Both the position numbers and the translations under genes were made by a program. The notes beneath the pieces were generated by a model that was not told the origin of the DNA, did no database searches, and was given only the letters and a program-made list of their open reading frames with translations. 64,000 nucleotides of DNA from Verrucomicrobiota bacterium (GTDB taxonomy: Bacteria; Verrucomicrobiota; Verrucomicrobiia; Limisphaerales; AAA164-E04): positions 768,001 through 832,000 of the forward strand of contig CP170459.1 in the NCBI GenBank assembly GCA_047947115.1. The letters run 5' to 3'. Positions 1 to 13,619 of this stretch are shown piece after piece; the stretch's first letter is position 1; each line of letters opens with the position of its first letter.

Positions 1-1014
1 CAGTGGAGTCCCGGTTCCCAACAAGGGATTCGTCACAGGATGCGGCGCCAGATTACCCACAAGCAACTCGCTGCCGGAAAAAGTCCTCTCATCTTCAACC
101 ACATTTTGCCCCACAGAAATCCGCCAGGATCTCAACCAGTTCTCCAGCCCGGTCACCCTGCCAACGGCCTTGAAATTGAAACCAATCAAAACACGACCGC
201 CCCCTCGCACATATTGATCCAGATGATGCAACTCTTCCGGTGCCCATTGCTGGACCGACCCGGCAATGATCAAGGCCGCAACATCGTCCGGAATCGCTCC
301 CTGTTCCCTTATGTTCCAGCTCTTGACCGCAAGGTTCTTTTCTTCCAGTGCATACTTCAAGGAAGCATACCCATCCAGGTCCTGGCTCTCCAGATCATGC
401 TCGTCGTGACCTTGCACGCAATAAACCACCGGAGTGTTACCCTCGACCAGATTCATCATCGCAGACGTAAACAACATCTCCCCCTTGAACCCCACCGCCT
501 TCATCATGAGCTGTCCCCCCTCATCCACATGCGTGGTGGTGTAATCGATCAACTCCTTAACAGACACCACCCGGTGACGCCCCTCCATTGCGAACAAAAC
601 ACTCTCGTGCTCCTGATCGTTCAGGAGTTCGAATTGTTTGCGGATCGTACGCGCTTTGTCGACTTGACGCAGGTAATCCACCACCTCCACCTGAATGTTC
701 GAATTGGCATGACGATATTCGTTGAGCAACCCCATGATGCTCGCATGGGGCGTGTCGCGTTCGTCCGGATCATGAAACACCACCACCCGCACCTCATTGG
801 TCAGTGACCGCACCCAGGATTCGGTCAAAGGTGACAGCATGACCGCCGGATCCTTATGCCAAAGAAATCGCCAGGGATGCTGGATCACCAGATAATTCAC
901 ACAAACAGCCATCCAGACAATGGCGACACCCGCCAACACAAAATCCAACCAGAAAGCGCTCCCCGTGAGAAGGCCTCGGCGTGACAGATTGGATGGTTTG
1001 TCGGAAGGTTGCAT
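1..1014 (-). CDS. GldG-like ABC transporter auxiliary component (3' end runs off the window)
   Basis: Manual translation from ATG at 1014: MQPSDKPSNLSRR...TM helix...EVRVVVFHDP...NIQVEVVDYLR...FKGEMLFTSAMMNL...VYCVQGHDEHDL...IPDDVAALIIAG...YVRGGGRVLI. This is a typical GldG/ABC_transp_aux layout and follows gldF-like and gldA-like genes. Not in the ORF track because there is no stop in the window. Confidence 0.8.
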   Translation of the reverse strand, partial: MQPSDKPSNLSRRGLLTGSAFWLDFVLAGVAIVWMAVCVNYLVIQHPWRFLWHKDPAVMLSPLTESWVRSLTNEVRVVVFHDPDERDTPHASIMGLLNEYRHANSNIQVEVVDYLRQVDKARTIRKQFELLNDQEHESVLFAMEGRHRVVSVKELIDYTTTHVDEGGQLMMKAVGFKGEMLFTSAMMNLVEGNTPVVYCVQGHDEHDLESQDLDGYASLKYALEEKNLAVKSWNIREQGAIPDDVAALIIAGSVQQWAPEELHHLDQYVRGGGRVLIGFNFKAVGRVTGLENWLRSWRISVGQNVVEDERTFSGSELLVGNLAPHPVTNPLLGTGTPL

Positions 1015-1023
1015 TGAACAAAT

Positions 1024-1782
1024 CTATTTTCGGCTTTCCACCATTCTCCAGGTCAGGAACAGGAACAACCCGGTCAGGGACATATAAAACGTCAAATGCC
1101 TGGCATCAATCACACCTCGAACAAAGTCGGTCATATGATCGAACAGACTGATGTGACCAAAAAAAGCCGCCTGCCAACCGGATTGATCAGGGATGATCTC
1201 AATCACGAAACTCAACATGAACAAAACCATCTCCAAAGTCAGACCGATCATGGCCGCGATAAGCTGACTCTTGGTACAAACCGAAGCCAGAGATCCCATT
1301 GACAAAAACAAGCCCCCAACCAGCAATACCCCAAGCATTGTTCCCCCGATGATCCCTGCATCCAGATATCCTGGATCATTAAAAAACTGTCCCAGCCAAA
1401 CCATCAACCCCCACAAGGGAATCCACATCAACCCATAAAAAGTCCAACTCGCGAAAAACTTTGAAAAAACCACCTGCACATTGCTGACGGGAGTCGTCAT
1501 CAATGCCTCGTAGGTGCCCGTCGATTTTTCAAAAGCAAAACTGCGCATGGTAATCGCAGGGCAGGCCAGCAAGACAATGAACCAAAAGAAAGGTGTACTG
1601 TAGAAGGCCTCGGTCAAAGGAGCATCCATGGCCCGACCATTGTAGGCCAGGATGACCGTGAGGAGACTCAGGCCAATGAGGAACATCACCATGCTCAGGA
1701 TAACGTATCCCGTCAGAGTGGTTAGATAAAACCCAAGCTCGCGCTTGAGCAATGTTGCAAAAATCCTCATGTTATCAATCAC
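1024..1782 (-). CDS. ABC-2 type transporter permease (GldF-like)
   Basis: Multiple TM helices; motifs KRELGFYL and TMRSFAFEKSTGTYEALMTTPV..VVFSKF; overlaps the ATPase gene. Confidence 0.85.
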   Translation of the reverse strand: MIDNMRIFATLLKRELGFYLTTLTGYVILSMVMFLIGLSLLTVILAYNGRAMDAPLTEAFYSTPFFWFIVLLACPAITMRSFAFEKSTGTYEALMTTPVSNVQVVFSKFFASWTFYGLMWIPLWGLMVWLGQFFNDPGYLDAGIIGGTMLGVLLVGGLFLSMGSLASVCTKSQLIAAMIGLTLEMVLFMLSFVIEIIPDQSGWQAAFFGHISLFDHMTDFVRGVIDARHLTFYMSLTGLFLFLTWRMVESRK

Positions 1783-2725
1783 CTAAAGGTCCATGACCCG
1801 ATCGGGTCAACTGCACAAACAAATCCTCCAGAGTCGGCTGCCGATGTGTGAGCTCACGAAGCGTCCAACCGCGTCGTTTGACTTCCTCAAACAACAAAGG
1901 CCGCAAATCCACACCATCACTCGAAGTCAGCGTACACTCCAAAAACCCGCGCCCAAGATCCTTGATCTTATGATCTGCCACTGACGGCATGGCCTGTAAC
2001 GCATGCGCCAAAGCTTCCCACGGAGCGGCCACCTCCGCCACCACATGAGTCAGACTCCCCATACGCTGATGAATCTTCTCCTTGGAATCATCCGCCAGCA
2101 GCTTCCCGGTGTGTAAAATCAGGATTCGATCACAAAGAATCTCAACTTCGGAAAGGATATGAGTCGAAAGCAACACCGTATGATTCTCCGCCAACGATGC
2201 AATCAACTTCCGAAACAAGCGAACCTGATGCGGATCCAAGCCAATCGTCGGTTCGTCCAGTATAATCACCTCCGGCTGATGCAGAATGGCGTCGGCCACC
2301 CCCACACGTTGACGATACCCCTTGGACATCTGACCAATAATTTTGCGCCGCACCTTGGACAAATCGCATAACTCCAGCACCTCGCCCAGACGTTTTCGCA
2401 GACGATCCCCATGCACTCCCTTCAACCCGGCCCGAAAACGAAGGTATTCCTCCACCCGCATGTCCAAGTGCAAGGGATTGTTCTCGGGCATGTAACCAAT
2501 CCGTTTACGCACCTCCATCGGTTTGCGATCAATATCATAACCCGCAATCCGCACCTTCCCCGAAGTAGGCGGCATGAAAGTGGACATGATGCGCATGGTC
2601 GTGCTCTTACCAGCGCCATTAGGCCCCAGAAACCCGACAACCTGCCCTCGCTTCACCGAAAACGAAAGCTCGCGCAGGGCCGTATGCCCCGCATAGCGCT
2701 TGGTCAAATGTTCCACCTGTATCAT
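1775..2725 (-). CDS. ABC transporter ATP-binding protein (GldA-like)
   Basis: Walker A GPNGAGKST, signature MSKGYRQR, Walker B IILDEPT, H-loop STH; start taken at MIQVEHL (ATG 2725). Confidence 0.9.
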   Translation of the reverse strand: MIQVEHLTKRYAGHTALRELSFSVKRGQVVGFLGPNGAGKSTTMRIMSTFMPPTSGKVRIAGYDIDRKPMEVRKRIGYMPENNPLHLDMRVEEYLRFRAGLKGVHGDRLRKRLGEVLELCDLSKVRRKIIGQMSKGYRQRVGVADAILHQPEVIILDEPTIGLDPHQVRLFRKLIASLAENHTVLLSTHILSEVEILCDRILILHTGKLLADDSKEKIHQRMGSLTHVVAEVAAPWEALAHALQAMPSVADHKIKDLGRGFLECTLTSSDGVDLRPLLFEEVKRRGWTLRELTHRQPTLEDLFVQLTRSGHGPLGD

Positions 2726-2881
2726 GTCAAATCCGATGCATTCCCAGACCTTTGAACCCAAAGGTGGGATGAACGTTCATTCTGCTGCCAGAACAAACCC
2801 CAGGCCAAGGAAAAATGTAAGGCAGGAGGTTCACTCCAACCTGGAAACACATCTACATTCTAGACTGCGAAACAAATTTAA

Positions 2882-5800
2882 TTAAGGAACACTGAGTTCT
2901 GAAAGATCGGTTTGCAGGGCCCCATTTGGCATCAGGGGTGAACAATCGGATGTGGCGTTCAATTCGGCGGCGCGAACACGGGCACGGTGTACCACGTGCG
3001 TGACACCCCGCACGCTGAGCAAACTGGGTTTCACGATATTTTCCATGGAAAGAAGCGAGTAAGGACAATTGGCACAACTCCCGACGAAACGGATGACAAC
3101 CTCACCCTTCTCCTCATTGATGTCCAACACTTCCAACTTGCCGCCATCATTGTTCAGAATGGGTTCAATCATGGTCTCAACCACTTGCTGCACCCTCCCC
3201 TGCAAGGTGGGCGCTTCCTCGATCTCGGATACGGCAATTTCGGGCTGCTGTTGGGCTAGTGAAAGGGCGGCAATCAATTGGGGGTCCTCGCTGACAGCAT
3301 GCACTCCGAGTTTGCCAAGGGACTCGGCCAACTCCGGTTTGACGCGCTTTTCCACCAGGTATTCACGAAATTTCTTGGGAGCGGCAGGGGCGATGTGAAT
3401 TTTTCCTACATATTCTTTCCAGTCCAGAGGTTCCGGACCAAAGAAATCAAAGTTTTCATCCCCCGACCTGATATATTGAACGATCAATTCACCCAGACGA
3501 TCAAAGAACCGATTATGTTGCTGGGTGGTTGCCCCTCTTTTACGGTTGATCACAAAATTGCGCAGGAGTGTCAACTCACGATCACGCGGCAGGATGCCTG
3601 TTTTGACGTCCACTCGCACGGCACGATTTTTCCAGCGATCCACCACCATGATCGAGCTGGATCCGATGGCACGGGAATGGATCAAACGGTCCGAATCAAG
3701 ATCAGCCGGAGATATATCAACAAAGTGGGCAGGCACATCGCCGGCGCAGGGTATCGCAATCCCCGACACAAAGGCCAACCGTTCACGCTCCACCTTGGCA
3801 CCAGTGCCAAACAGCATTTCAATACCGCGCTTGATGGCGACAAACAACTGAATGGCCACAATCTCTTCCTTGAATTCCAATATGGAGCTTTTGTGGGCGG
3901 ACAGGAGACTGGCCACCACTTCCTTTCCGTCTTCATCAACCAACACGATGCCCCCCGTAAGATCCGACAGAAGCGTATGCAATGCGGACTGGAAATCCAA
4001 CCGTCTCAGCAAAGGCAACAAGAAGCTTAATAACCGCCACCTGTCATTTGAATCCAACTCCCCAAGAACCTGACACCCCTGCTTGCGGTAATCCTTTGAG
4101 GTAACATATCGCTGAATAAAAGCCATAAATGCCCCGATAGCCGCGGCAAGTCCGGGATCGGATCCGGCATTTGAAAGCCGAATGACATCTTCCGCCGGCC
4201 AGGGATGTCTGGGGGGATACACCTGCTGGGTTTCCGCCCACTTTTCGTCCAATGGAAAATGTTTACGGTAATCCTGATAGATGGTGTCGATCAGACTCTT
4301 TAAAATGGCAGTATCCGGTGAGTTCCAAAGCGCTTGCTCAATCGAAGTGAGGGCATGCAGATTGACAGAGGTGCGCTTGATCAGACTTTGATTTGTAAAT
4401 GCATCGGATTCGACGTAGTCGGTCAAACGATTGATCTCACCCGGAACAAAATCCATGAACACGGCATCCAATGGCGTCCGATCGTTCAATGAAACAATTG
4501 CCACGGCGCTTCCCTGTCCCGAGGACAAGCGCACTGGTTGCCCCTGGCCCACACCTCGGGCGTTGGCAAGATCCGGATGTATTTCCACAAAGTATTCCTC
4601 GGCATCCACCCCATAAATGGGCAGTGTCTTGATCCCTGAATTGTACCTCCCCCGATAAGCCATGCCGTTCATACCGGGACGTCCACGTCCGCTGATCAAC
4701 CGGATGGGGCCGGAAGAAGAGGCTGTCCGTCTGGATGATCCCTCTTTCGGCAGAGGCGCAACCGAAACCAGGTAATCATCCGGAGGTCTAACCAAGCGCG
4801 CAGGTCCCCGGTCAGGATGCTGAAGCCTCGGGAACACATGCCCATCTGTGGAAGATTTCTGATAACGACCATTTCCCTGCCATTGCACGCCGATACCAGC
4901 CATGTCCCGAAGCATCAAGTGACTGATCGGAAGACCGTTCTGGTCCACCAGCTTGGAATAGAGGTTCAACTTGCCGGATACTTCCACAATATGATCAAAC
5001 ACCTTGGAGGAATCCACATCACCCTGATCATCCACATACTTCGCAAAGGTGCGCTCAACGACATCGGGGGAAAGATCATTCAGCTGAGCCGTGTCCGGAT
5101 CCTGCAGGCGCTTGGCAATGGCCAGAGCCAGTCGGGCGAGAATCTGTTCGTCGGACCAGGCGTTTTCCGGGGGCTCGGTAAGGCGTTGCTGCAATTGTAA
5201 GGTCCGATCACCGCGCTGAATCACACCCGTACGTTCGGTATAAGTCATGGACGGCAACAGCACATCCGCCCACTCCAGCACTCCATCCGCGAGAAAGGGA
5301 TCAATGACCACATTGAAAGCGCGTCCCATGCGCCGCATCCAGTGCCCCAGTCTCGGCATGTTTTTGGTCATCTGCGTTCCGACAAAAAGGAACCAGTACA
5401 ATCGGTCATCTTCACACATGTGCGAAACCGGGGTTCCCTTTCCGGAAGGGATATTACTGATGGGAAGATCCAGAGCGTCAGCCAAAGCCTCACGATGTTC
5501 TTCACAATGGGGGTCCATGTTAAACAGAAGCCTTCTGGAATTGAAGCCCATCATGAGTTCACTTGTCGCATTGGACTGTCCGGCAATACGCAGCGATCCG
5601 GCCCCCTTTCGTCCGACATTGCCGGTGAGCAACAGCAGATTCAAATTCGTCGAAAAACCATAAGATCCCGTACTCTGATTAATCCCCATGCTGGAAACAA
5701 AGGCAACTTTGGGACGTTGACCGGAGGAATGATCTGATGGCCGTGATATTAAGGCCGCATAATCGCGGATCACTTTCTCGAGATGCGCAGGATCGTCACC

Positions 5801-6805
5801 TGTCGCCACAATACTGTGTGCCACGCTTGAAGGTTCACAACGATCTTCCATGACCAATTCACGAAAGGCCTGCAAACTTTCAATGTCCACCACACGTTGC
5901 AAATATTCCCTGTCTTCCCACCCCTCCTCAAGAATCACGCGACTGACTGCCAGATTGAACAAGACATCACAACCTTGCTGAAAACGAATGTGAAGCGTTC
6001 GTTCGTCACAGGCCTTCAAATCAGAAACCGTGTCGGTTGCAACCGGATCAATCACCACCTTGATGGGATGCGGATTACGTTTCAACTTTTCGTAAGCTTG
6101 GGGAAATGTGATGTAAGGATTCGTTCCATGAAGTACCGCAATGTCACAAAAGTCCAATTCTTCAAATTCCTGCCAGGTGAATGAAGCTTCATTCCCAAAA
6201 TTCAATTCATGGGCAGCTCCTGCACTGGCAAGGCAATGCTCGGAATTGGCCCCAATCGTGGGCATTTTAAATACAAGTTTGTAAAGGGAAGCCATCCAGA
6301 TGGCCTCAAGAGTTTTCTGGCCATTTCCATACAATCCCACCGCGTCCGGGCCCACCCATTCTCGCGCATGTAAAAACAACCATGCCGCCCGATCCAAGGC
6401 TTTTTCCCAGGAAACCGGGTGCATCTTTCCGTCATGCCCCCGAATCATGGGTGAGGTGATCCGGTCGTCGGGCAGTTTCCTTTTCTCGAGACGCTGCCGA
6501 CGCTCGGTCAATCCTCCAGTCATAAGGGAAGTTTTCCCTTTGATACAAAGTCCAAGAGCACTCATGGGCACCACAACAGGACGCCCCTTCTTATCAGCTT
6601 CTACCGCATAAGGACAACCCACGCCGCAATAACTGCAAACACTTGATTGTGAGGTAAGGCGATCAAATCTCTCCCTGGCGGCCGGTAATGCACGCAATTG
6701 GGCATCCTGCCTGAAATGACGCACGAACTTCCAGGCTTCCATATTAATTGGTTCGGGAGTTTTCGCTTTTTGAGCAGTGCGCATGGCTTGATTTTTTGAA
6801 TTCAT
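2882..6805 (-). CDS. Molybdopterin (Mo/W-bisPGD) oxidoreductase, NasA/NapA/FdhF superfamily, with an unknown middle domain and a C-terminal NifU/NfuA domain
   Basis: [4Fe-4S] motif CSYCGVGC...LCIKG; SWEKALD; Cys-ligand region NSEHCLASA; HGTNP; MGINQS; ADVLLPS..YTERTG...DRTLQ; Molydop_binding domain (VEIHPDLA..GV.QGQPVRLSS.QG); C-terminal IEPILNNDGGKLEVLDI...VIRFVGSCANCPYS. AAGGAG RBS upstream of ATG 6805. Confidence 0.88.
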   Translation of the reverse strand: MNSKNQAMRTAQKAKTPEPINMEAWKFVRHFRQDAQLRALPAARERFDRLTSQSSVCSYCGVGCPYAVEADKKGRPVVVPMSALGLCIKGKTSLMTGGLTERRQRLEKRKLPDDRITSPMIRGHDGKMHPVSWEKALDRAAWLFLHAREWVGPDAVGLYGNGQKTLEAIWMASLYKLVFKMPTIGANSEHCLASAGAAHELNFGNEASFTWQEFEELDFCDIAVLHGTNPYITFPQAYEKLKRNPHPIKVVIDPVATDTVSDLKACDERTLHIRFQQGCDVLFNLAVSRVILEEGWEDREYLQRVVDIESLQAFRELVMEDRCEPSSVAHSIVATGDDPAHLEKVIRDYAALISRPSDHSSGQRPKVAFVSSMGINQSTGSYGFSTNLNLLLLTGNVGRKGAGSLRIAGQSNATSELMMGFNSRRLLFNMDPHCEEHREALADALDLPISNIPSGKGTPVSHMCEDDRLYWFLFVGTQMTKNMPRLGHWMRRMGRAFNVVIDPFLADGVLEWADVLLPSMTYTERTGVIQRGDRTLQLQQRLTEPPENAWSDEQILARLALAIAKRLQDPDTAQLNDLSPDVVERTFAKYVDDQGDVDSSKVFDHIVEVSGKLNLYSKLVDQNGLPISHLMLRDMAGIGVQWQGNGRYQKSSTDGHVFPRLQHPDRGPARLVRPPDDYLVSVAPLPKEGSSRRTASSSGPIRLISGRGRPGMNGMAYRGRYNSGIKTLPIYGVDAEEYFVEIHPDLANARGVGQGQPVRLSSGQGSAVAIVSLNDRTPLDAVFMDFVPGEINRLTDYVESDAFTNQSLIKRTSVNLHALTSIEQALWNSPDTAILKSLIDTIYQDYRKHFPLDEKWAETQQVYPPRHPWPAEDVIRLSNAGSDPGLAAAIGAFMAFIQRYVTSKDYRKQGCQVLGELDSNDRWRLLSFLLPLLRRLDFQSALHTLLSDLTGGIVLVDEDGKEVVASLLSAHKSSILEFKEEIVAIQLFVAIKRGIEMLFGTGAKVERERLAFVSGIAIPCAGDVPAHFVDISPADLDSDRLIHSRAIGSSSIMVVDRWKNRAVRVDVKTGILPRDRELTLLRNFVINRKRGATTQQHNRFFDRLGELIVQYIRSGDENFDFFGPEPLDWKEYVGKIHIAPAAPKKFREYLVEKRVKPELAESLGKLGVHAVSEDPQLIAALSLAQQQPEIAVSEIEEAPTLQGRVQQVVETMIEPILNNDGGKLEVLDINEEKGEVVIRFVGSCANCPYSLLSMENIVKPSLLSVRGVTHVVHRARVRAAELNATSDCSPLMPNGALQTDLSELSVP

Positions 6806-6892
6806 TGTGCTGGTCTCCTTGGCTTGATTGATCCTGGCAGAGTAGGAAATCATCACTTCCAGATACAAGATATAAAGTTCGAAAATCCGACA

Positions 6893-7882
6893 AGTCGCCT
6901 TTGAAGTCGCCTTTGGGGTCACGTCTCGACATTCAACATTTGGCAAATCGTATCCATTTGCTTTTTCAACCGTCTTTCAGTTTGGATCTTTTTGTTAAAA
7001 CGCCGTATCCCAGCACTGACACTTGAATAGTCCATGTCCCCCACCTTTTCCCCTAACTCAGCCTGGGTTAATCCACAATATCGATGCGCAAGCCATAGCA
7101 ACATCCACTTACCCAAATCACCATGCCTCCCTACCCAATCACGCATCGGTTCAGTTTTGTGTTCTTCCAATACTTCAATGACTTTTTCTAATGGAACAGT
7201 TCTTTTGAAACGAAACCGCCCCTCGTATTCACGCGCATTATTCGGATCTACATAGGATTTGATCTTTTCCAGGAATTCCGCTGAACCGACTGCTATCTGT
7301 TCCTTGAATTGTTCAAACGTAGTTTCCTGGATTCCCCGACGCACCTGATCCTTGGTCATCTCACGATAACGTAGATGCCTATCTCTGAGTCGCCTTTGAA
7401 GTCGCCTTTGGGGTCACGTCTCGACATTCAACATTTGGCAAATCGTATCCATTTGCTTTTTCAACCGTCTTTCAGTTTGGATCTTTTTGTTAAAACGCCG
7501 TATCCCAGCACTGACACTTGAATAGTCCATGTCCCCCACCTTTTCCCCTAACTCAGCCTGGGTTAATCCACAATATCGATGCGCAAGCCATAGCAACATC
7601 CACTTACCCAAATCACCATGCCTCCCTACCCAATCACGCATCGGTTCAGTTTTGTGTTCTTCCAATACTTCAATGACTTTTTCTAATGGAACAGTTCTTT
7701 TGAAACGAAACCGCCCCTCGTATTCACGCGCATTATTCGGATCTACATAGGATTTGATCTTTTCCAGGAATTCCGCTGAACCGACTGCTATCTGTTCCTT
7801 GAATTGTTCAAACGTAGTTTCCTGGATTCCCCGACGCACCTGATCCTTGGTCATCTCACGATAACGTAGATGCCTATCTCTG
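6893..7882. repeat. 495-bp tandem direct duplication (6893-7387 = 7388-7882) of the transposase 3' end plus its inverted repeat
   Basis: Both copies begin AGTCGCCTTTGAAGTCGCCTTTGGGGTCACG and end ...GATGCCTATCTCTG; ORFs 6919-7359 and the end of 7414-8469 give identical peptides. Confidence 0.95.
6919..7359 (-). pseudogene. Duplicated C-terminal fragment (HTH only) of the Y1/RAYT transposase
   Basis: Identical to the last 146 aa of the transposase; lacks the HUH and catalytic Tyr region. Confidence 0.8.
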
Positions 7883-8531
7883 TGACTTTTTCCTGCAGCA
7901 TCCAATACTTTTGACGTCTGCAACCAATCCGGAGCACTGCCATAGCCTGCATAGCATCTAAAGGAACTCCACCGGTAGGTCCTTAGAGCCTTTAGCCTGA
8001 CGCTGACTTCTTCTGGCGTGGGTGGAGCAACGAGTCCCATCCCCTCGTCTTTATTTCTTCGTTTACCCAACCCAAAAGTCTCAGTCCGCACCGGATTGAG
8101 ATGGATGTAAAACGTCAACTGCCACAACCAGTCCTCCGCATCTACTGGCAAACTTTTAAAACGTCCTTGGAACAGTGGTCCAACACGTTGGTGCTTTCGA
8201 TTGAACCAGGTGCTGTAAGATTGCCCAAGCCACTTCATCCCTTCACTCAAATTCCCAAGTGGCGTACACACTGCCAGATGATAGTGGTTATCCATCAAAC
8301 AATATGCGTGAACTTCTATTCCGTATCGCTCCAGCAACAACCCCATCAACTCAACAAAATGAGACCGATCACGATCACCTAGAAAGATCTCCCTGCGCTC
8401 AATACCACGGTTCATCACATGATACCAACCACCAGCTTGATTCACTCTTAACGGTCTGGCCATGCACACATACTACCCAACATGTCTTAAAAATCCAACT
8501 CAAATGTCGAATGTCGAGACGTGACCCCAAA
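7407..8531 (-). mobile_element. Y1/RAYT transposase element bounded by 31-bp inverted repeats
   Basis: 7407-7437 TTTGGGGTCACGTCTCGACATTCAACATTTG matches the reverse complement of 8501-8531 at 30/31 positions; a third copy is at 6912-6942. Confidence 0.8.
7414..8463 (-). CDS. REP-associated tyrosine transposase (Y1_Tnp/IS200-like HUH) with C-terminal DnaA-C-like HTH
   Basis: MARPLR..GWYHVMNRG; HUH motif AYCLMDNHYHL; GPLFQGRFKS; YIHLNPVR; YRWSS; C-terminal LTQAELGEKVGDMDYSSV HTH. Confidence 0.92.
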   Translation of the reverse strand: MARPLRVNQAGGWYHVMNRGIERREIFLGDRDRSHFVELMGLLLERYGIEVHAYCLMDNHYHLAVCTPLGNLSEGMKWLGQSYSTWFNRKHQRVGPLFQGRFKSLPVDAEDWLWQLTFYIHLNPVRTETFGLGKRRNKDEGMGLVAPPTPEEVSVRLKALRTYRWSSFRCYAGYGSAPDWLQTSKVLDAAGKSHRDRHLRYREMTKDQVRRGIQETTFEQFKEQIAVGSAEFLEKIKSYVDPNNAREYEGRFRFKRTVPLEKVIEVLEEHKTEPMRDWVGRHGDLGKWMLLWLAHRYCGLTQAELGEKVGDMDYSSVSAGIRRFNKKIQTERRLKKQMDTICQMLNVET

Positions 8532-8952: not shown

Positions 8953-11900
8953 TTATTCGGCCACCGCTCTGGCGAATCCTTGCGGGGCTTCAGTTGTGGA
9001 CCAGACGCGCGGGCTTTGGCTGTCGTCGGCAACGTCTGTCCAGGGGCCGGTGACTTCGTCCGCCATCTGGAGCATTCCGATCCATTCGATGGTGACGTTT
9101 GCGCCGTCGCTGCTGATCTGGATTTCCGGCGTCACGTTCTGGACTTCGCCGGCTGATTGGTATGCCTTGATGGAGTCCGGATTGGACGTGTCGTTAACCA
9201 GATGAATCTTACGGTCCTTGACCGAGTAGAATTCCAGCATCAATCCGTCTTCCTGATTGGTTTCGGACTGGAACCAGAGGATACGAACGGGATACAGACC
9301 GTCTCTAGGTGCTACGATATCGAAGATCTGGCTGCGACCGTAATAGGTCGGAACGCGCTCGGCATTTTCAGAGTTGTCGTAGAGGCTCAAGACCGGTCCA
9401 CTTGGATCATGTGTCGCAGTGACCTTGTGGCCGCCTTCGGAGAACAATCCCAACTGATGGTAACCCGCAGACAGTTCGAGGTAGGTTTTGAGTTCAAGCA
9501 CGACACCTTCCAAGGCAGGAGCACCAATGTCCGACAGCACTGGAAAGAGCTGATCATTCGGGAAATTCAACACGGCGTCCTTTTCGTCCGCCAGAGCATA
9601 CCAGTTGACCACTCCATCCACTGAGACAGCTTCGCTTTCCCATTCACTGAAGTTGGTTGTTACTTCGTTGTAATAGCCCAATCCAGTTTCATCCTCCAGC
9701 TCACCCGCCAATTGCAGTTCGGCTGTTTCAGCAATGTTGTTGTGCACATTGGTTACTTCCAACGGCTGCCAGGAACTGATCATGGTGAAGGTGGCCAGGA
9801 ATCCCGGCTTACTGTCGTTGGTTACCGAGCCGCGACTACTCTGCGGCAACGCGGTATATTCCATGACGTTCACCACGAATGACTGAGTCTGAGTGCTGCC
9901 ACCCACGGATGCGCTGACGGAAACTTCATGCACACTGCCGGGAGCCAGCAACTGCGGGAAGCGACCGTTGACCGTAGTGATTCCATTGGCCTTGGAAGCG
10001 CTCACGATGGCGTTTGCTCCACCGACGGATGCAGAGATGGAGTTGGGATCCACTGTATTGTCGCCTTCGTCTGTCAACTGTAAGGTGAACCCATATCCAT
10101 TGGCATTGAAGCTGTTTTCCACTCCGAATCCAGAGCCAACACCCTGACTCAGGGTCATTGAATCCGATTCCACCCAATCCACTTGCCAACCATTGGAAGC
10201 CCCTTCCTGGAAGGCGGACAGCGCAATGGTCTGACCCGTAGCAATACCCAGATCGGACAGGTTGAGCGTGGCACTGATGGTGTTGCCGGATGCCACGTAG
10301 GAGTAATCCTGAACGATCGCAGTTTCGTCGTCCGCAGGATCGTAGACATACACTCCGTCCGGAGCGCCATCGCGCCAACCGAATTGCACCACCAAATCGG
10401 CTCCGATGGGACTTTGCAAGTTGGTGGCGTTGCCTTCGTATTCGCTGTTGGTGCGGCCTGTGGCAGGGTTGTTGTCTGTGTCGATCAACCAGTGATAGTA
10501 ATAACGGTTGTTCATACCTTCCGCAGTTTGATCCACGGTTGGAGCAGCCCAACTGGTGGTGCTCATGAGAAGTCGCAGTTGATCGCCTGCCACCCAACCA
10601 TTGACCTGTGTCAAGTCGCCGCTTGGATCCGCCATATCGCCGGAAGCATCGGATACCGAAGCCGAAGCCATGCCACCGCCGTTGATGGCGAGGGTTGCGG
10701 ATTCGACCCAGTCGACTTGCCAGCCGTTGGATGCGCCTTCCTGGAATGCCGACACGGCTATGGTTTGGCCTTGAGCCAATCCAAGTGCGGCGAGCGGAAA
10801 GACGGCTGCAACCGTGTTACCACCGATTTGATAAGAGTAATTCTGCACAATGGCGGTTTCGTCATCGGCCGGATCGTAAACATAGACTCCGTCCGGCGCG
10901 CCGTTGCGCCAACCGAATTGAACCACCAGATCGGCCCCGATAGGGTTTTGCAAATTGGTAGCATTGCCTTCGTATTCACTGTTCGTTCGACCGGTGGCCG
11001 GATTGTTGTCGGTATCCAGCAACCAGTGGTAGTAGTGGCGATTGGTCATGCCTTCGGCGGTTTGTTCAATAGTAGGACCAGCAAAATTTTGTGTAGTCAG
11101 GTAGAGATAAAGCAGATCTCCCACCACGGCAACTTGAACGGAGGAGATGTCTCCGTTGGCGTCCGCCATGTCAGCGGGATCGGTCACGGTAGCTGTCGAA
11201 GCGGAACCGCCGTTCAGCGTCAGCGTATCGGATTCGATCCAGTCAACCTGCCACCCATTTGAAGCACCTTCCTGGAAAGCGGACACGCCGATGGTCTGTC
11301 CGTGAGCCAAACCGAGAGCATCCAATGAAAGAATGGCTTCAATGGTGTTGCCACGCGTCAAAAATGCATAATTCGATACGATGGCTGTTTCGTCATCAGC
11401 CGGGTCATAGACATAGACACCGTCAGGCGCCCCGTTGCGCCAGCCGAATTGCACCACCAGGTCGGCTCCGATCGGATTTTCGAGGTTGGTGGCATTCCCT
11501 TCGTATTCGCTGTTGGTGCGACCGGTGGCGGGATTGTTGTCGGTATCCAACAACCAGTGATAATAATAGCGATTGGTCATCCCTTCAGGGGTTTGGTCCA
11601 CGGTTGGCGCTGCCACCCCGTGAACAGACAAGGACAAGTGCAGGAAGTCTCCGACCACAGTGGCGTGCAGACCGGCGATATCGCCACTGCTGTCAGCCAT
11701 GTCGGCAACATCCTGAACGCGGGCGCTGTCCAGACCGGCACCCCCTCCCGGAACGGAAAGCGTGATTTGTGCGGATTCCGCCCAATCGACCTGCCAGCCA
11801 TTCGACGCGCCTTCCTCGAAAGCGGAAACTGCCAGTGTTTGTCCGGTGGCAATGCCCAGGTCATCCAGATTCAGGATGGCGGTAATGGTATTTCCGGAAG

Positions 11901-13458
11901 CCAAATGGGCGTAGTTTTGAACAATGGCTGTTTCGTCATCAGCGGGATCATAGACATAAACACCATCAGGGGCACCATCGCGCCAACCGAACTGCACAAC
12001 AAGATCGGCACCGATCGGGTTTTCAAGATTGGTGGCATTGCCTTCGTATTCGCTGTTGGTGCGACCGGTTGCCGGGTTGTTGTCGGTGTCGATCAACCAG
12101 TGGTAATAATAACGGTTGGTCATGCCTTCGGCGGTTTGATCTGCTGTGGGAGCCGCCCAGCTGGTGGCGGTCATGGAGAGATGCAATTGGTTGCCGACCA
12201 CGTAGGCGCCAACCTGGGTCAGGTCACCGCTTGGATCCGCCATGTCACCGCTTGCATCGGCCACCGCCGTGCTGGCAATGCCCCCGCCATTCACAGTCAA
12301 GGTATCGGATTCCACCCAGTCGACCTGCCAGCCATTGGAAGCGCCTTCTTGGAAACCGGATACAGCAATGGTTTGTCCTTCGGCTAAACCAAGAGCAGAC
12401 AAAGGAATCACGGCTCCTATCGTGTTTCCACCGATTTGATAGGCAAAATTGCTGACAATGGCGGTTTCATCATCCGCCGGGTCGTAAGCATATACACCGT
12501 CGGGAGCTCCATTGCGCCAACCGAACTGGATGACCAGGTCGGCTCCGATCGGGTTTTCGAGATTGGTGGCGTTGCCTTCGTATTCGCTGTTGGTGCGGCC
12601 GGTCGCAGGATTGTTGTCGGTGTCGATCAACCAGTGGTAGTAGTAGCGGTTGGTCATGCCTTCAGCTGTCTGGTCCACTGTTGGGGCAGCGATGTTCTGC
12701 GTGGTCATATACAGATGCAATTGGTCACCTACGACTGCAGCCATAATGGAGGAGATATCCCCGTTCACATCTGCCATATCAGCCGCATCGGACACCGAAG
12801 CCGTTGCGGAGGAGCCTCCATTCAACGTGAGAGTGGCGGATTCGATCCAATCCACCTGCCAGCCATTGGAAGCCCCTTCCTGAAAGGCCGACAAAGCAAC
12901 CGTTTGGCCTTTGGCCAATCCTAGGGATGCCAGGGGAATCACGGCATTAATAGTATTTCCTCGCGCGAAGAAAGCGTAGTTCTGAACGATCGGGGTTTCA
13001 TCGTCTGCCGGATCGTAAGCGTACACGCCATCCGGAGCACCGTTTCGCCATCCGAACTGAATAATCAGATCGGCACCAATCGGGTTCTCCAGATTGGTGG
13101 CGTTTCCTTCATATTCGCTGTTGGTCCGACCGGTGGCCGGATTATTGTCGGCATCAATCAACCAATGATAGTAGTAGCGGTTGGTCATGCCTTCGGGAGT
13201 CTGGTCGACGGTGGGAGCTGCCGTGCCGTGAACAGTCATGGTGAGGTGCAGGAAATCGCCAACAACGGCTGCCTGTACACCTGCAATATCACCACTGGAA
13301 TCCACCATATCGGCGGGATCCTGGATGGAGGCGCTTTGTTGCCCCATCATCTGGACTTGCGTGGTCAGTAAAACGGCGCTCAGGATTGCCCATGCAACGC
13401 GTGCATGCCCCACGAGGCGGCCAGCCCTTGCGCGTGAGGTTTTAATTCGATTAATCAT
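8953..13458 (-). CDS. Large secreted protein with six ~178-aa repeats (DOMON/CBM9-like fold suspected), an Ig-like/PA14-like region and a Verrucomicrobia-type C-terminal domain
   Basis: N-terminal basic plus hydrophobic signal-like segment; six copies of D..DM.D..GD...YYYHWL(I/L)DTDNNPATGRTNSEYEGNATNL..PIGADL..QFGWR.GAPDGVY.YDPADDET...SAFQEGASNGWQVDW.ES; C-terminal EIQISSDGANVTIEWIGMLQMADEVTGPWTDV. Confidence 0.85.
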   Translation of the reverse strand: MINRIKTSRARAGRLVGHARVAWAILSAVLLTTQVQMMGQQSASIQDPADMVDSSGDIAGVQAAVVGDFLHLTMTVHGTAAPTVDQTPEGMTNRYYYHWLIDADNNPATGRTNSEYEGNATNLENPIGADLIIQFGWRNGAPDGVYAYDPADDETPIVQNYAFFARGNTINAVIPLASLGLAKGQTVALSAFQEGASNGWQVDWIESATLTLNGGSSATASVSDAADMADVNGDISSIMAAVVGDQLHLYMTTQNIAAPTVDQTAEGMTNRYYYHWLIDTDNNPATGRTNSEYEGNATNLENPIGADLVIQFGWRNGAPDGVYAYDPADDETAIVSNFAYQIGGNTIGAVIPLSALGLAEGQTIAVSGFQEGASNGWQVDWVESDTLTVNGGGIASTAVADASGDMADPSGDLTQVGAYVVGNQLHLSMTATSWAAPTADQTAEGMTNRYYYHWLIDTDNNPATGRTNSEYEGNATNLENPIGADLVVQFGWRDGAPDGVYVYDPADDETAIVQNYAHLASGNTITAILNLDDLGIATGQTLAVSAFEEGASNGWQVDWAESAQITLSVPGGGAGLDSARVQDVADMADSSGDIAGLHATVVGDFLHLSLSVHGVAAPTVDQTPEGMTNRYYYHWLLDTDNNPATGRTNSEYEGNATNLENPIGADLVVQFGWRNGAPDGVYVYDPADDETAIVSNYAFLTRGNTIEAILSLDALGLAHGQTIGVSAFQEGASNGWQVDWIESDTLTLNGGSASTATVTDPADMADANGDISSVQVAVVGDLLYLYLTTQNFAGPTIEQTAEGMTNRHYYHWLLDTDNNPATGRTNSEYEGNATNLQNPIGADLVVQFGWRNGAPDGVYVYDPADDETAIVQNYSYQIGGNTVAAVFPLAALGLAQGQTIAVSAFQEGASNGWQVDWVESATLAINGGGMASASVSDASGDMADPSGDLTQVNGWVAGDQLRLLMSTTSWAAPTVDQTAEGMNNRYYYHWLIDTDNNPATGRTNSEYEGNATNLQSPIGADLVVQFGWRDGAPDGVYVYDPADDETAIVQDYSYVASGNTISATLNLSDLGIATGQTIALSAFQEGASNGWQVDWVESDSMTLSQGVGSGFGVENSFNANGYGFTLQLTDEGDNTVDPNSISASVGGANAIVSASKANGITTVNGRFPQLLAPGSVHEVSVSASVGGSTQTQSFVVNVMEYTALPQSSRGSVTNDSKPGFLATFTMISSWQPLEVTNVHNNIAETAELQLAGELEDETGLGYYNEVTTNFSEWESEAVSVDGVVNWYALADEKDAVLNFPNDQLFPVLSDIGAPALEGVVLELKTYLELSAGYHQLGLFSEGGHKVTATHDPSGPVLSLYDNSENAERVPTYYGRSQIFDIVAPRDGLYPVRILWFQSETNQEDGLMLEFYSVKDRKIHLVNDTSNPDSIKAYQSAGEVQNVTPEIQISSDGANVTIEWIGMLQMADEVTGPWTDVADDSQSPRVWSTTEAPQGFARAVAE
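10150..13325 (-). repeat. Six intragenic repeats with spacing ~531, 534, 543, 531, 534 bp, i.e. an (A-B-C)x2 arrangement with ~1608-bp period
   Basis: Spacing of the GWQVDW codons; repeats 1/4, 2/5 and 3/6 share N-terminal signatures (SSGDIAG, NGDISS, DASGDMADPSGDLTQV). Confidence 0.9.
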
Positions 13459-13619
13459 ACGGTTCAAGGTTTGGGTCCTCAATGTGTCATTTTGGAGACA
13501 TAAGCGTTATATATAAAAGACTGAAAGTGAGCAAACTCAAATTAAAGTAAGTGACAGCAAGATTTCCCAATGCCGTATTACATCGAAGGGAATCTCAAGT
13601 GGGGATTACCCAGGCAGGA

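Follow-up and report, generated by a model that had tools for sequence, protein, structure and literature searches.

New reactions of enzymes whose cofactor is a bis(pyranopterin guanine dinucleotide) of molybdenum or tungsten (Mo/W-bisPGD) arose by domain gain and active-site change, according to the largest MopB phylogeny (PMC10100899), and the arsenite oxidase and iodate reductase lines, Aio and Idr, are described as offshoots of the same radiation as the nitrate reductases of the Nas type (PMC7331816). Accessory proteins are known around such enzymes. FmdE genes are co-transcribed with the Mo formylmethanofuran dehydrogenase in methanogens, FmdE proteins form dimers, a fusion of FmdE to a molybdopterin-binding (MoeA/MogA-type) domain is known, and a chaperone role has been suggested for them (PMC2954224); Nfu proteins function in the maturation of iron-sulfur (Fe-S) proteins (PMC4982691). 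Here we describe a gene that combines these elements in one chain of 1307 residues: a Mo/W-bisPGD catalytic core, a helical linker, a predicted FmdE-fold domain and an Nfu domain. It lies at positions 2882..6805, on the minus strand, of the window analysed, a stretch of 64,000 nucleotides from a Verrucomicrobiota bacterium (contig CP170459.1, positions 768,001 to 832,000, assembly GCA_047947115.1). The family to which it belongs displays domain gain and active-site change together.

The gene is an intact single frame without internal stop. Its ATG start is supported, because a ribosome-binding site, AAGGAG (6815..6820), lies 9 nt 5' of it and the two closest relatives align with the protein from residue 1; all features of the gene given here are on the minus strand. 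Pfam places Molybdopterin at residues 115-560, Molydop_binding (domain IV) at 716-797 (4415..4660) and NifU at 1205-1262 (E 1.4e-11, 44.8 bits against a cut-off of 27), with zero Pfam domains over 798-1204. A sequence-only reading of this stretch had proposed a complete Mo/W-bisPGD core continuing in frame, through an unrecognised region, into an Nfu domain: the unbroken frame and the Pfam map agree with it, the region between is indeed empty in Pfam, and the Nfu motif text and coordinates that it gave are accurate (residues 1198-1276, 2978..3214). The assembly itself is corroborated by a contig of an independent study, which spans 900-6933 and differs within the gene by five substitutions and zero indels.

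The fused architecture is that of a whole family. A search with the middle region alone retrieves 94 proteins, 718-2288 aa long, of which 92 contain a NifU domain, and the best 120 matches of a search with the core only belong to the same family, at 56-100% identity; beyond it, identity falls to 24-32%. When both searches are pooled, the Mo-binding Cys, Cys1020 of the middle region and the CxxC of the Nfu domain occur together in 113/129 distinct homologues, the remaining 16 being shorter or frameshifted pieces. A profile search of 1.84 billion representatives yields 25 proteins, each of which is a family member or a fragment (P0114 among them is an apparent chimera with a 26-residue match), and among 80 loci kept from a metagenome scan, 2 are family members and 78 ordinary NasA at 24-32% identity. 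In GTDB, surveyed by an exact-pattern scan whose counts are a lower bound, 47 of 50 loci are family members. They come from 45 genomes, assigned by title to five phyla: Verrucomicrobiota, alpha- and gamma-proteobacteria, Myxococcota, Chloroflexota and cyanobacteria; many of these hosts are marine or estuarine. Core, middle region and Nfu stand in one unbroken frame in 32/45 genomes. All parts are present but interrupted by a stop or frameshift in 4/45, and in 7/45 the gene is cut by a contig end, the missing tail being located on another contig for 5 of these 7. Locus L040 holds a broken gene without Nfu and L045 a remnant only; at L039 unrelated sequence follows the core, so that the Chromatiaceae copies look degraded. 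A consistent two-gene form was considered and rejected, since the 34 shorter database proteins begin at scattered positions without a common split point, as contig ends and frameshifts would give. Taken by sequence, the fusion is ancestral to the family and its architecture is fixed across phyla. The earlier suggestion that this is a stand-alone Mo/W-bisPGD subfamily not described before is thus borne out, and its Nfu fusion is genuine and conserved: there is no consistent split form, and we found no named family and no paper for it.

The family tree intermixes phyla, a pattern consistent with horizontal transfer, and the gene is rare and patchy, being present in 3/41 close genomes and 0/7 same-genus genomes. 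Contigs of two other runs diverge from the window at 2850, just beyond the gene end, and share one loose end, so that some strains of the population are without the gene, which sits at a variable site beside a conserved ABC-2 exporter. Parts of the gene were found in 6 RNA runs, and the 4 examined cover it in short contigs; as these contigs also cover the flanks and a transposase gene, DNA carry-over is a possible source of them. The terminal repeat of the transposase is linked to position 6273 within the gene by a contig of one RNA run, which suggests a repeat insertion disrupting it in some strains.

The stretch between core and Nfu, left without identification by PDB profile and sequence searches, Pfam and NCBIfam, and without a usable match in the ESM Atlas, could be taken further by structure. 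An AlphaFold2 model of residues 815-1175, built on a 91-sequence alignment (predicted local distance difference test score, pLDDT, 92; predicted template modelling score, pTM, 0.90), comprises an all-helical part (residues ~821-948, 3962..4345), without clear structural match, followed by an alpha+beta domain (residues ~949-1135, 3401..3961). In Foldseek, three solved FmdE proteins take ranks 1, 2 and 4 (E 0.03, 0.1 and 0.5; probability 0.77-1.0), and in VIA the same three come first among 48,161 chains (Z 9.8, 8.9 and 8.2; next Z 6.5), with a root-mean-square deviation of 3.1-3.2 over 134-146 residues. As these Z values are moderate, the match was checked further by profile comparison: aligned by HHalign with 21 FmdE sequences, the family segment reaches 72% (E 3.3e-5), compared with at most 0.4% for five other segments, at most 2.65% in 40 column shuffles and 0.12% for the reversed profile. 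The alpha+beta domain is predicted, on these model-based comparisons, to have the FmdE fold, although the FmdE Pfam model PF02663 matches nothing in the host genome at E 10, nor the 1307-aa protein.

Eight residues of this domain are near-invariant: H971, K979, E980, E981, C1020, D1023, H1043 and H1097. In FmdE, the metal site is formed by His-x-His-x-Cys and, lastly, by the Cys of Cys55-x2-Asp58, and a covalent ligand was seen on this last Cys, as Cys61 (PMC2954224). The corresponding FHGHxC motif is lost in the family, where the inter-helix loop reads E977-F-K-E-E981 and is near-invariant; SYN_00638, the top structural match, likewise lacks two of the FmdE metal ligands. The reactive Cys-x2-Asp is kept: C1020 is found in 121/122 and D1023 in 122/122 family proteins, and the pair in 20/21 FmdE rows, in a register that was set by eye and by secondary structure, the HHalign alignment being not clean there. 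A longer FmdE motif, C-x2-D-x6-G-x-S/T, occurs in only 6/21 FmdE rows, and for this reason only C-x2-D is claimed. This pattern of conservation suggests a pocket that is probably under selection but with altered chemistry.

The core keeps the residues expected to hold its centres. The [4Fe-4S] cysteines C57, C60, C64 and C87 and the bridging K89 (6539..6637) do not vary among the 122-124 family proteins that include these positions, even though the Pfam Fe4S4 model does not match the 1307-aa protein. C191 is likewise invariant where covered; it lies in the loop N187-S-E-H-C191-L192...H199 (6209..6247) and aligns with Cys140, the Mo ligand of the nitrate reductase DdNapA. The Nap/Nas residues Gln163, Met373, Asn376-Gln377 and Gln410 are retained, as are Arg707, Asn792 and Lys810, which contact the cofactor in domain IV. 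The lining of the substrate channel is changed. Relative to DdNapA, Met141 is replaced by Leu192 and Asp155 by Glu206 in 125/125 members, Arg138 is replaced by Glu189 in every member covering the position, and the equivalent of Arg354 is gone, Arg or Lys being found at +5 to +9 after Q410 in 0/127 members. These swaps bring a net acidic gain (E189, E206, E416). In 30 Nas/Nap references, which were labelled by motifs and NCBIfam scores and are not characterised enzymes, the Met, Asp and Arg354 equivalents are present in 30/30 and that of Arg138 in 28/30; among further NasA-type matches, RLCM is found in 76/78 and GGRE in the 72/72 that cover it. In DdNapA, Arg354 and Asp155 line the substrate channel, and Arg354 is a possible nitrate-binding site (PMC13223375).

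Another arginine is present in the channel motif R406-IAGQSNATS-E416-L417 (5549..5590). R406, invariant in 127/127, aligns with Arg447 of AioA from strain NT-26, named pivotal for AioA catalysis (PMC10448176), and this column holds Arg in 3/3 Aio/Idr references and in 0/37 references of the Nas, Nap and formate dehydrogenase (Fdh) groups. Other AioA columns differ: His199, Glu207, Lys413 and His451 correspond to N187, A195, M373 and Q410. Markers of formate dehydrogenases are absent as well, with L192 in place of the His after Cys/Sec and A408 in place of the Arg before GQ. All NCBIfam scores are far below their cut-offs, the best being Fdh-alpha with 174 bits against 666; the NasC/NasA models give 136 bits against cut-offs of 1000-1100, which the host's canonical NasA, at 438-476, also falls short of. 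Judged on residues and domains, the protein is a member of the MopB (dimethyl sulfoxide reductase) superfamily but of none of the tested named families, and the alignments indicate an active site remodelled away from both nitrate and formate enzymes.

A tree of 44 sequences and 627 columns was computed with IQ-TREE under LG and under C20 with posterior mean site frequencies (C20-PMSF), in three runs, redundant, partial and broken reference rows having been removed beforehand (27 of 88 first, further ones later). Family monophyly has a support of 100, the stem length ranges from 1.3 substitutions per site under LG to 2.0 under C20-PMSF, and the family falls within the Nas/Nap/Aio radiation with an ultrafast bootstrap (UFBoot) of 88 under LG, 97 under PMSF and 99 when Aio and distant outgroups are left out. 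Its sister group is AioA/IdrA under LG (SH-like approximate likelihood ratio test 80, UFBoot 70) and Nap under C20-PMSF (UFBoot 57-61). The AioA/IdrA sister-group is model-dependent and is not claimed; its vanishing under C20-PMSF is as expected of long-branch attraction. In an approximately unbiased (AU) test with 5000 replicates, fewer than advised, a grouping with cytoplasmic formate dehydrogenases is rejected (p 0.003), whereas groupings with NapA (0.26) and NarB/NasA (0.09) are not.

The Nfu domain (residues 1198-1276) carries its CxxC, C1244-A-N-C1247 (3065..3076), in 119/121 family proteins covering it, and is the only Nfu domain encoded by the host. The model of a homologue, P0080 (1199 residues), is one folded unit (pLDDT 88, pTM 0.87) with the Nfu end as its least certain part (pLDDT 57-89 across the last 90 residues). 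Its core matches NapA and Fdh structures in Foldseek at E about 1e-33, DdNapA being the best (6e-33), in line with the Nap/Nas/Fdh fold assigned with Pfam to the core of our protein (residues 50-820, 4346..6658). By analogy with Nfu carriers, the domain may mature or repair the enzyme's own cluster. That the fused Nfu replaces a housekeeping Nfu was also considered; this fits the host, but not most carriers.

No conserved operon surrounds the family gene. Among 203 neighbour open reading frames (ORFs) annotated by Pfam there is no nitrite reductase, nitrate transporter, Nap, Rieske, cytochrome c peroxidase or ars gene, and the neighbour families that recur include no nitrite reductase or nitrate transporter either. 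Some associations do recur. A single-domain globin is the first neighbour in 6/46 genomes, where 0.017 would be expected, in three orientations and ~3 lineages, and these globins best match the model of NO-inducible flavohaemoprotein (NO, nitric oxide); one further genome has a truncated globin at a distance of 0.7 kb, and another has an H-NOX gene near the family gene. In 6/7 genomes of a cyanobacterial clade, the sole DUF1858 gene lies at most 1.2 kb from the family gene, in shuffled positions. A Bradyrhizobium DUF1858 gene is NnrR-dependent, with a 29-fold drop in an nnrR mutant (PMC6710368), and the proposed nitrate sensor DrpB includes the domain (PMC6282519). A Fur-like box, defined as at least 14/19 matches to the Fur consensus, stands upstream of 9/43 loci, compared with 0.57 expected from dinucleotide shuffles and with 2/162 control promoters; in a Minwuia-like clade, it persists while the divergent neighbour switches from ugpB to rimO. 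Together, the globin, DUF1858 and Fur-box signals point, weakly but repeatedly, to nitrosative and iron stress.

Our preferred reading, to which we give somewhat less than an even chance, is that the protein is a cytoplasmic Mo/W oxidoreductase of nitrosative and oxidative-stress defence, whose tail reloads or protects its own metal centres. It would be a single-chain enzyme from the nitrate-reductase branch, with a rebuilt substrate channel and an FmdE-fold/Nfu tail. The conserved [4Fe-4S] ligands, bridging Lys, Mo-binding Cys and cofactor contacts suggest that the presumed Mo/W-bisPGD and Fe-S centres are kept, and the replacement of the nitrate-channel Met, Asp and two Arg, with its acidic gain, would favour a neutral or weakly charged substrate, such as an N-oxide, a hydroxylamine-type or a nitrosated species. 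An enzyme of this kind would be made under NO, peroxide or iron stress, its reaction could be an oxygen-atom transfer, and its substrate a nitrogen-oxide by-product different from free nitrate; the neighbours are what would link the enzyme to NO and iron stress. As suggested by the precedents of Nfu and FmdE, the Nfu CxxC may accept an Fe-S cluster from the host machinery, and cluster or reducing thiol equivalents may then be handed via Cys1020 of the FmdE domain to the core. A tail held in the same chain could let a single gene work after horizontal transfer.

Several observations weigh against this stress-defence reading. Two of the ~3 globin lineages adjoin the broken Chromatiaceae copies, and 6 of the 9 Fur-like boxes belong to the one Minwuia-like clade; more generally, the stress signals cluster by clade, DUF1858 being confined to one, and related genomes do not count as independent. 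Boxes for FNR/DNR, NnrR, NsrR, NorR and NtcA are not enriched upstream of the gene, and most loci, including this window, have no stress neighbour at all. Another stand-alone Nfu or NifU is encoded in ~35/45 carrier genomes, so that a private carrier is not obviously needed. Finally, residue swaps can be compensatory, R406 perhaps standing in for Arg354, and nitrate may therefore still be a substrate.

This last point leads to a first alternative, a nitrate reductase with a re-engineered channel, which could, for example, recycle the nitrate made by a neighbouring globin NO dioxygenase or serve as a backup assimilatory enzyme. The nesting of the family among Nas/Nap, where a NapA or NarB/NasA sister is not rejected and Nap is best under C20-PMSF, its retained Q163, M373, N376-Q377 and Q410, the globin neighbours and the presence of DUF1858 in the proposed nitrate sensor DrpB (PMC6282519) all speak for it. 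Against it, the channel Met, Asp and both Arg are replaced in every member, the scanned neighbours include no nitrite reductase or nitrate transporter, and the host has its nas cluster elsewhere; we consider it unlikely, without dismissing it. Exchanging the corresponding Met, Asp and Arg of NarB reportedly leaves that enzyme inactive. A cytoplasmic relative of arsenite oxidase or iodate reductase, whose substrate would be a neutral oxy-species of a metalloid or halogen (arsenite, antimonite, iodate) and in which Cys1020 and the CxxC would form a thiol relay, would account for R406 in the Arg447 column, for the best PDB match of residues 240-430 to AioA (E 1.6e-7, compared with 7.6e-4 for NapA), for the sister position under LG and for the many marine and estuarine hosts. 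We nevertheless regard it as rather improbable, for the family keeps the Cys ligand and the fourth Fe-S Cys that AioA and IdrA lack, misses the equivalents of AioA His199, Glu207, Lys413 and His451, shows neither a Tat motif nor, in the neighbourhoods scanned, any Rieske, cytochrome c peroxidase or ars gene, and loses the sister link under C20-PMSF. A formate dehydrogenase, to which the top NCBIfam score (Fdh-alpha, 174 bits) and the tie of methanogen FmdE to a CO2-reducing Mo enzyme (PMC2954224) might point, is very improbable, as this score is far under the cut-off of 666, the His and Arg of formate dehydrogenases are missing, and the AU test goes against the grouping (p 0.003).

Other alternatives concern the tail or the gene itself. 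The tail could be an electron-transfer module, in which a dimer would permanently bind a [4Fe-4S] cluster with its two Nfu domains, or the CxxC would cycle as a dithiol. Such a tail would stand in for the BFD or flavodoxin tails found on NasA, and a globin or ferredoxin may be its partner in electron exchange. It is placed where NasA has its electron-input modules (the reference L049 ends with a CysJ-like flavoprotein), no dedicated donor gene accompanies the family, a 2Fe-2S ferredoxin and its reductase being found only near Minwuia-like loci, and FmdE domains dimerise (PMC2954224). In the full-length model, however, no part is placed with less confidence than the Nfu domain. Nfu clusters are known to be labile and transferable and are not known as fixed wires, and we hold this relay to be a minority possibility. 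That the fusion is an artefact, due to a lost stop, a misassembly or a dead gene, might be suspected from the broken relatives L040, L045 and L039 and from a transposase gene and a 495-bp tandem duplication that sit 90 bp upstream; with 32/45 genomes unbroken, an independent contig in agreement and invariant catalytic residues, it can hardly be maintained. A more far-reaching version of the stress-defence reading, speculative and on balance doubtful, is that the family is, with AioA and IdrA, the third to have escaped nitrate reduction: it would then be a new MopB catalytic family with a so far unassigned reaction in NO or nitrogen-oxide chemistry, working with single-domain globins and with in-chain cofactor maturation, the Nfu passing Fe-S or sulfur via the FmdE Cys to Mo.

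In the window, the REP-associated (repetitive extragenic palindromic) tyrosine transposase gene occupies 7414-8469 on the minus strand, between 31-nt inverted repeats at 7407-7437 and 8501-8531. Its 3' end is duplicated in an exact tandem of 495 bp (6893-7387 = 7388-7882); a low-depth contig crosses the joint in one other run, a single copy is present in another, and the transposase-associated repeat recurs at several places in the genome. Farther on, 8953-13482 encodes a 1509-aa protein, probably secreted, with ~six near-identical repeats (YYYHWLxDxDNNPATGRTNSEYEGNATNL...) and no convincing Pfam match. A scan for sigma-70 promoters and terminators gives nothing exceeding chance. The sequence-only reading had seen no nitrite reductase, NapB, FdhD or transporter gene nearby. 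As to nitrite reductase, NapB, FdhD and a nitrate transporter, this holds in Pfam among the 7 other ORFs of 1-16.9 kb and, in the rest of the window, among the 22 ORFs of at least 250 aa; as to transporters in general, it does not, as an ABC-2 exporter (ATPase and permease) begins 120 bp downstream on the same strand. This exporter was rejected as a partner, five same-genus genomes having it without the gene. Elsewhere, the host encodes a canonical nitrate-assimilation cluster, a selenocysteine formate dehydrogenase, moaC and fdhD; MoaC is found in 42/45 carrier genomes. After the host's only PF00042 globin gene (L295:5526-8068; G000:C1 ~4,751,500-4,754,100) come genes for a BFD-domain flavoprotein resembling NirB and for a multihaem cytochrome, a possible reductase partner for a single-domain globin.

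Other carriers present gatherings of their own. At the Minwuia-like loci L012, L013, L015, L016, L023 and L024, rimO (a two-cluster radical S-adenosylmethionine enzyme), a 2Fe-2S ferredoxin and a ferredoxin reductase lie nearby; RimO, ferredoxin and UgpB were rejected as partners, being confined to one lineage. At the cyanobacterial loci L021, L032, L038 and L210, an efflux operon of HlyD, ABC and two ABC-2 permease genes accompanies the gene and DUF1858, in shuffled order. A 918-aa Nap-like enzyme on a long branch, atypical in its domain-IV and channel residues, is encoded at L173 (G167:C10) of a myxobacteria-like genome, where genes for DUF1858 and globin are close by.

In a literature search that left most subscription journals outside, we found no publication on a fusion of a Mo enzyme with NifU. 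The main text of the largest MopB phylogeny has no mention of NifU, Nfu or fused forms and its table no such lineage, its supplementary trees being outside this statement (PMC10100899), and the consulted portions of PMC5432002 and PMC9751292 have nothing on a Mo-FmdE-Nfu family. Automatic database names for its members are 'molybdopterin-dependent oxidoreductase' and 'dehydrogenase/NfuA'. New here are the channel remodelling, the AioA-type Arg and the links to globin, DUF1858 and the Fur box. Through this family, the functionally unassigned FmdE fold is physically joined to a Mo enzyme in organisms other than methanogens. As one soluble gene, the enzyme lends itself to direct expression and assay. 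The family also offers a test in cis of questions on Nap/Nas maturation: the protein that sulfurates the Nap cofactor is described as unknown (PMC10609526), and a 2026 review argues that NapA has an oxo and not a sulfido ligand (PMC13223375). That the family is spread among cyanobacteria and among bacteria of marine and estuarine waters suggests a step in nitrogen-oxide or oxyanion handling that has gone unrecognised. If the third-escape reading were true, it would give the FmdE fold its first biochemical function, and provide a handle on the acquisition or repair of metal centres in Nap/Nas-type enzymes without FdhD.

Compared with known systems, the family is closest to NasA/NarB/NasC and NapA, with which it has in common the fold, one [4Fe-4S] cluster, the bridging Lys, the Cys ligand and the MGxNQ and GQxNA motifs; NasA likewise carries C-terminal add-on modules. 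It differs from them in being only 24-31% identical, in the replacement of the Met141, Asp155, Arg138 and Arg354 equivalents, in standing outside any nas/nap operon and in its tail, which is FmdE-fold plus Nfu and not BFD or flavoprotein. The lack of a Tat signal, in agreement with the earlier reading, sets it apart as well: by regular-expression search only, a Tat-like motif is found in 0/122 family N-termini. AioA and IdrA share with it the Arg of the R406/Arg447 column, but these periplasmic enzymes have no amino-acid Mo ligand, a [3Fe-4S] cluster and a Rieske partner, none of which the family shows. FdhD and XdhC, the chaperones of Mo cofactor sulfuration, offer an analogy, that of a Cys-bearing accessory module serving a Mo enzyme; they are separate proteins, and no sequence or fold match to the family was found. 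FmdE proteins (PF02663; PDB 3d00, 2glz, 2gvi) have in common with it the alpha+beta core and the strand-Cys-x2-Asp-helix element, whereas the family domain is 7-11% identical, has the conserved E-x-K-E-E in place of FHGHxC, lacks the zinc finger and is fused to the catalytic subunit itself. With the NfuA/Nfu carriers, finally, it shares a NifU domain with DGG and CxxC; the fused Nfu is more diverged (E ~1e-11, compared with 1e-28 for stand-alone Nfu of the same genomes) and, unlike these carriers, is joined in cis to its presumed client enzyme.

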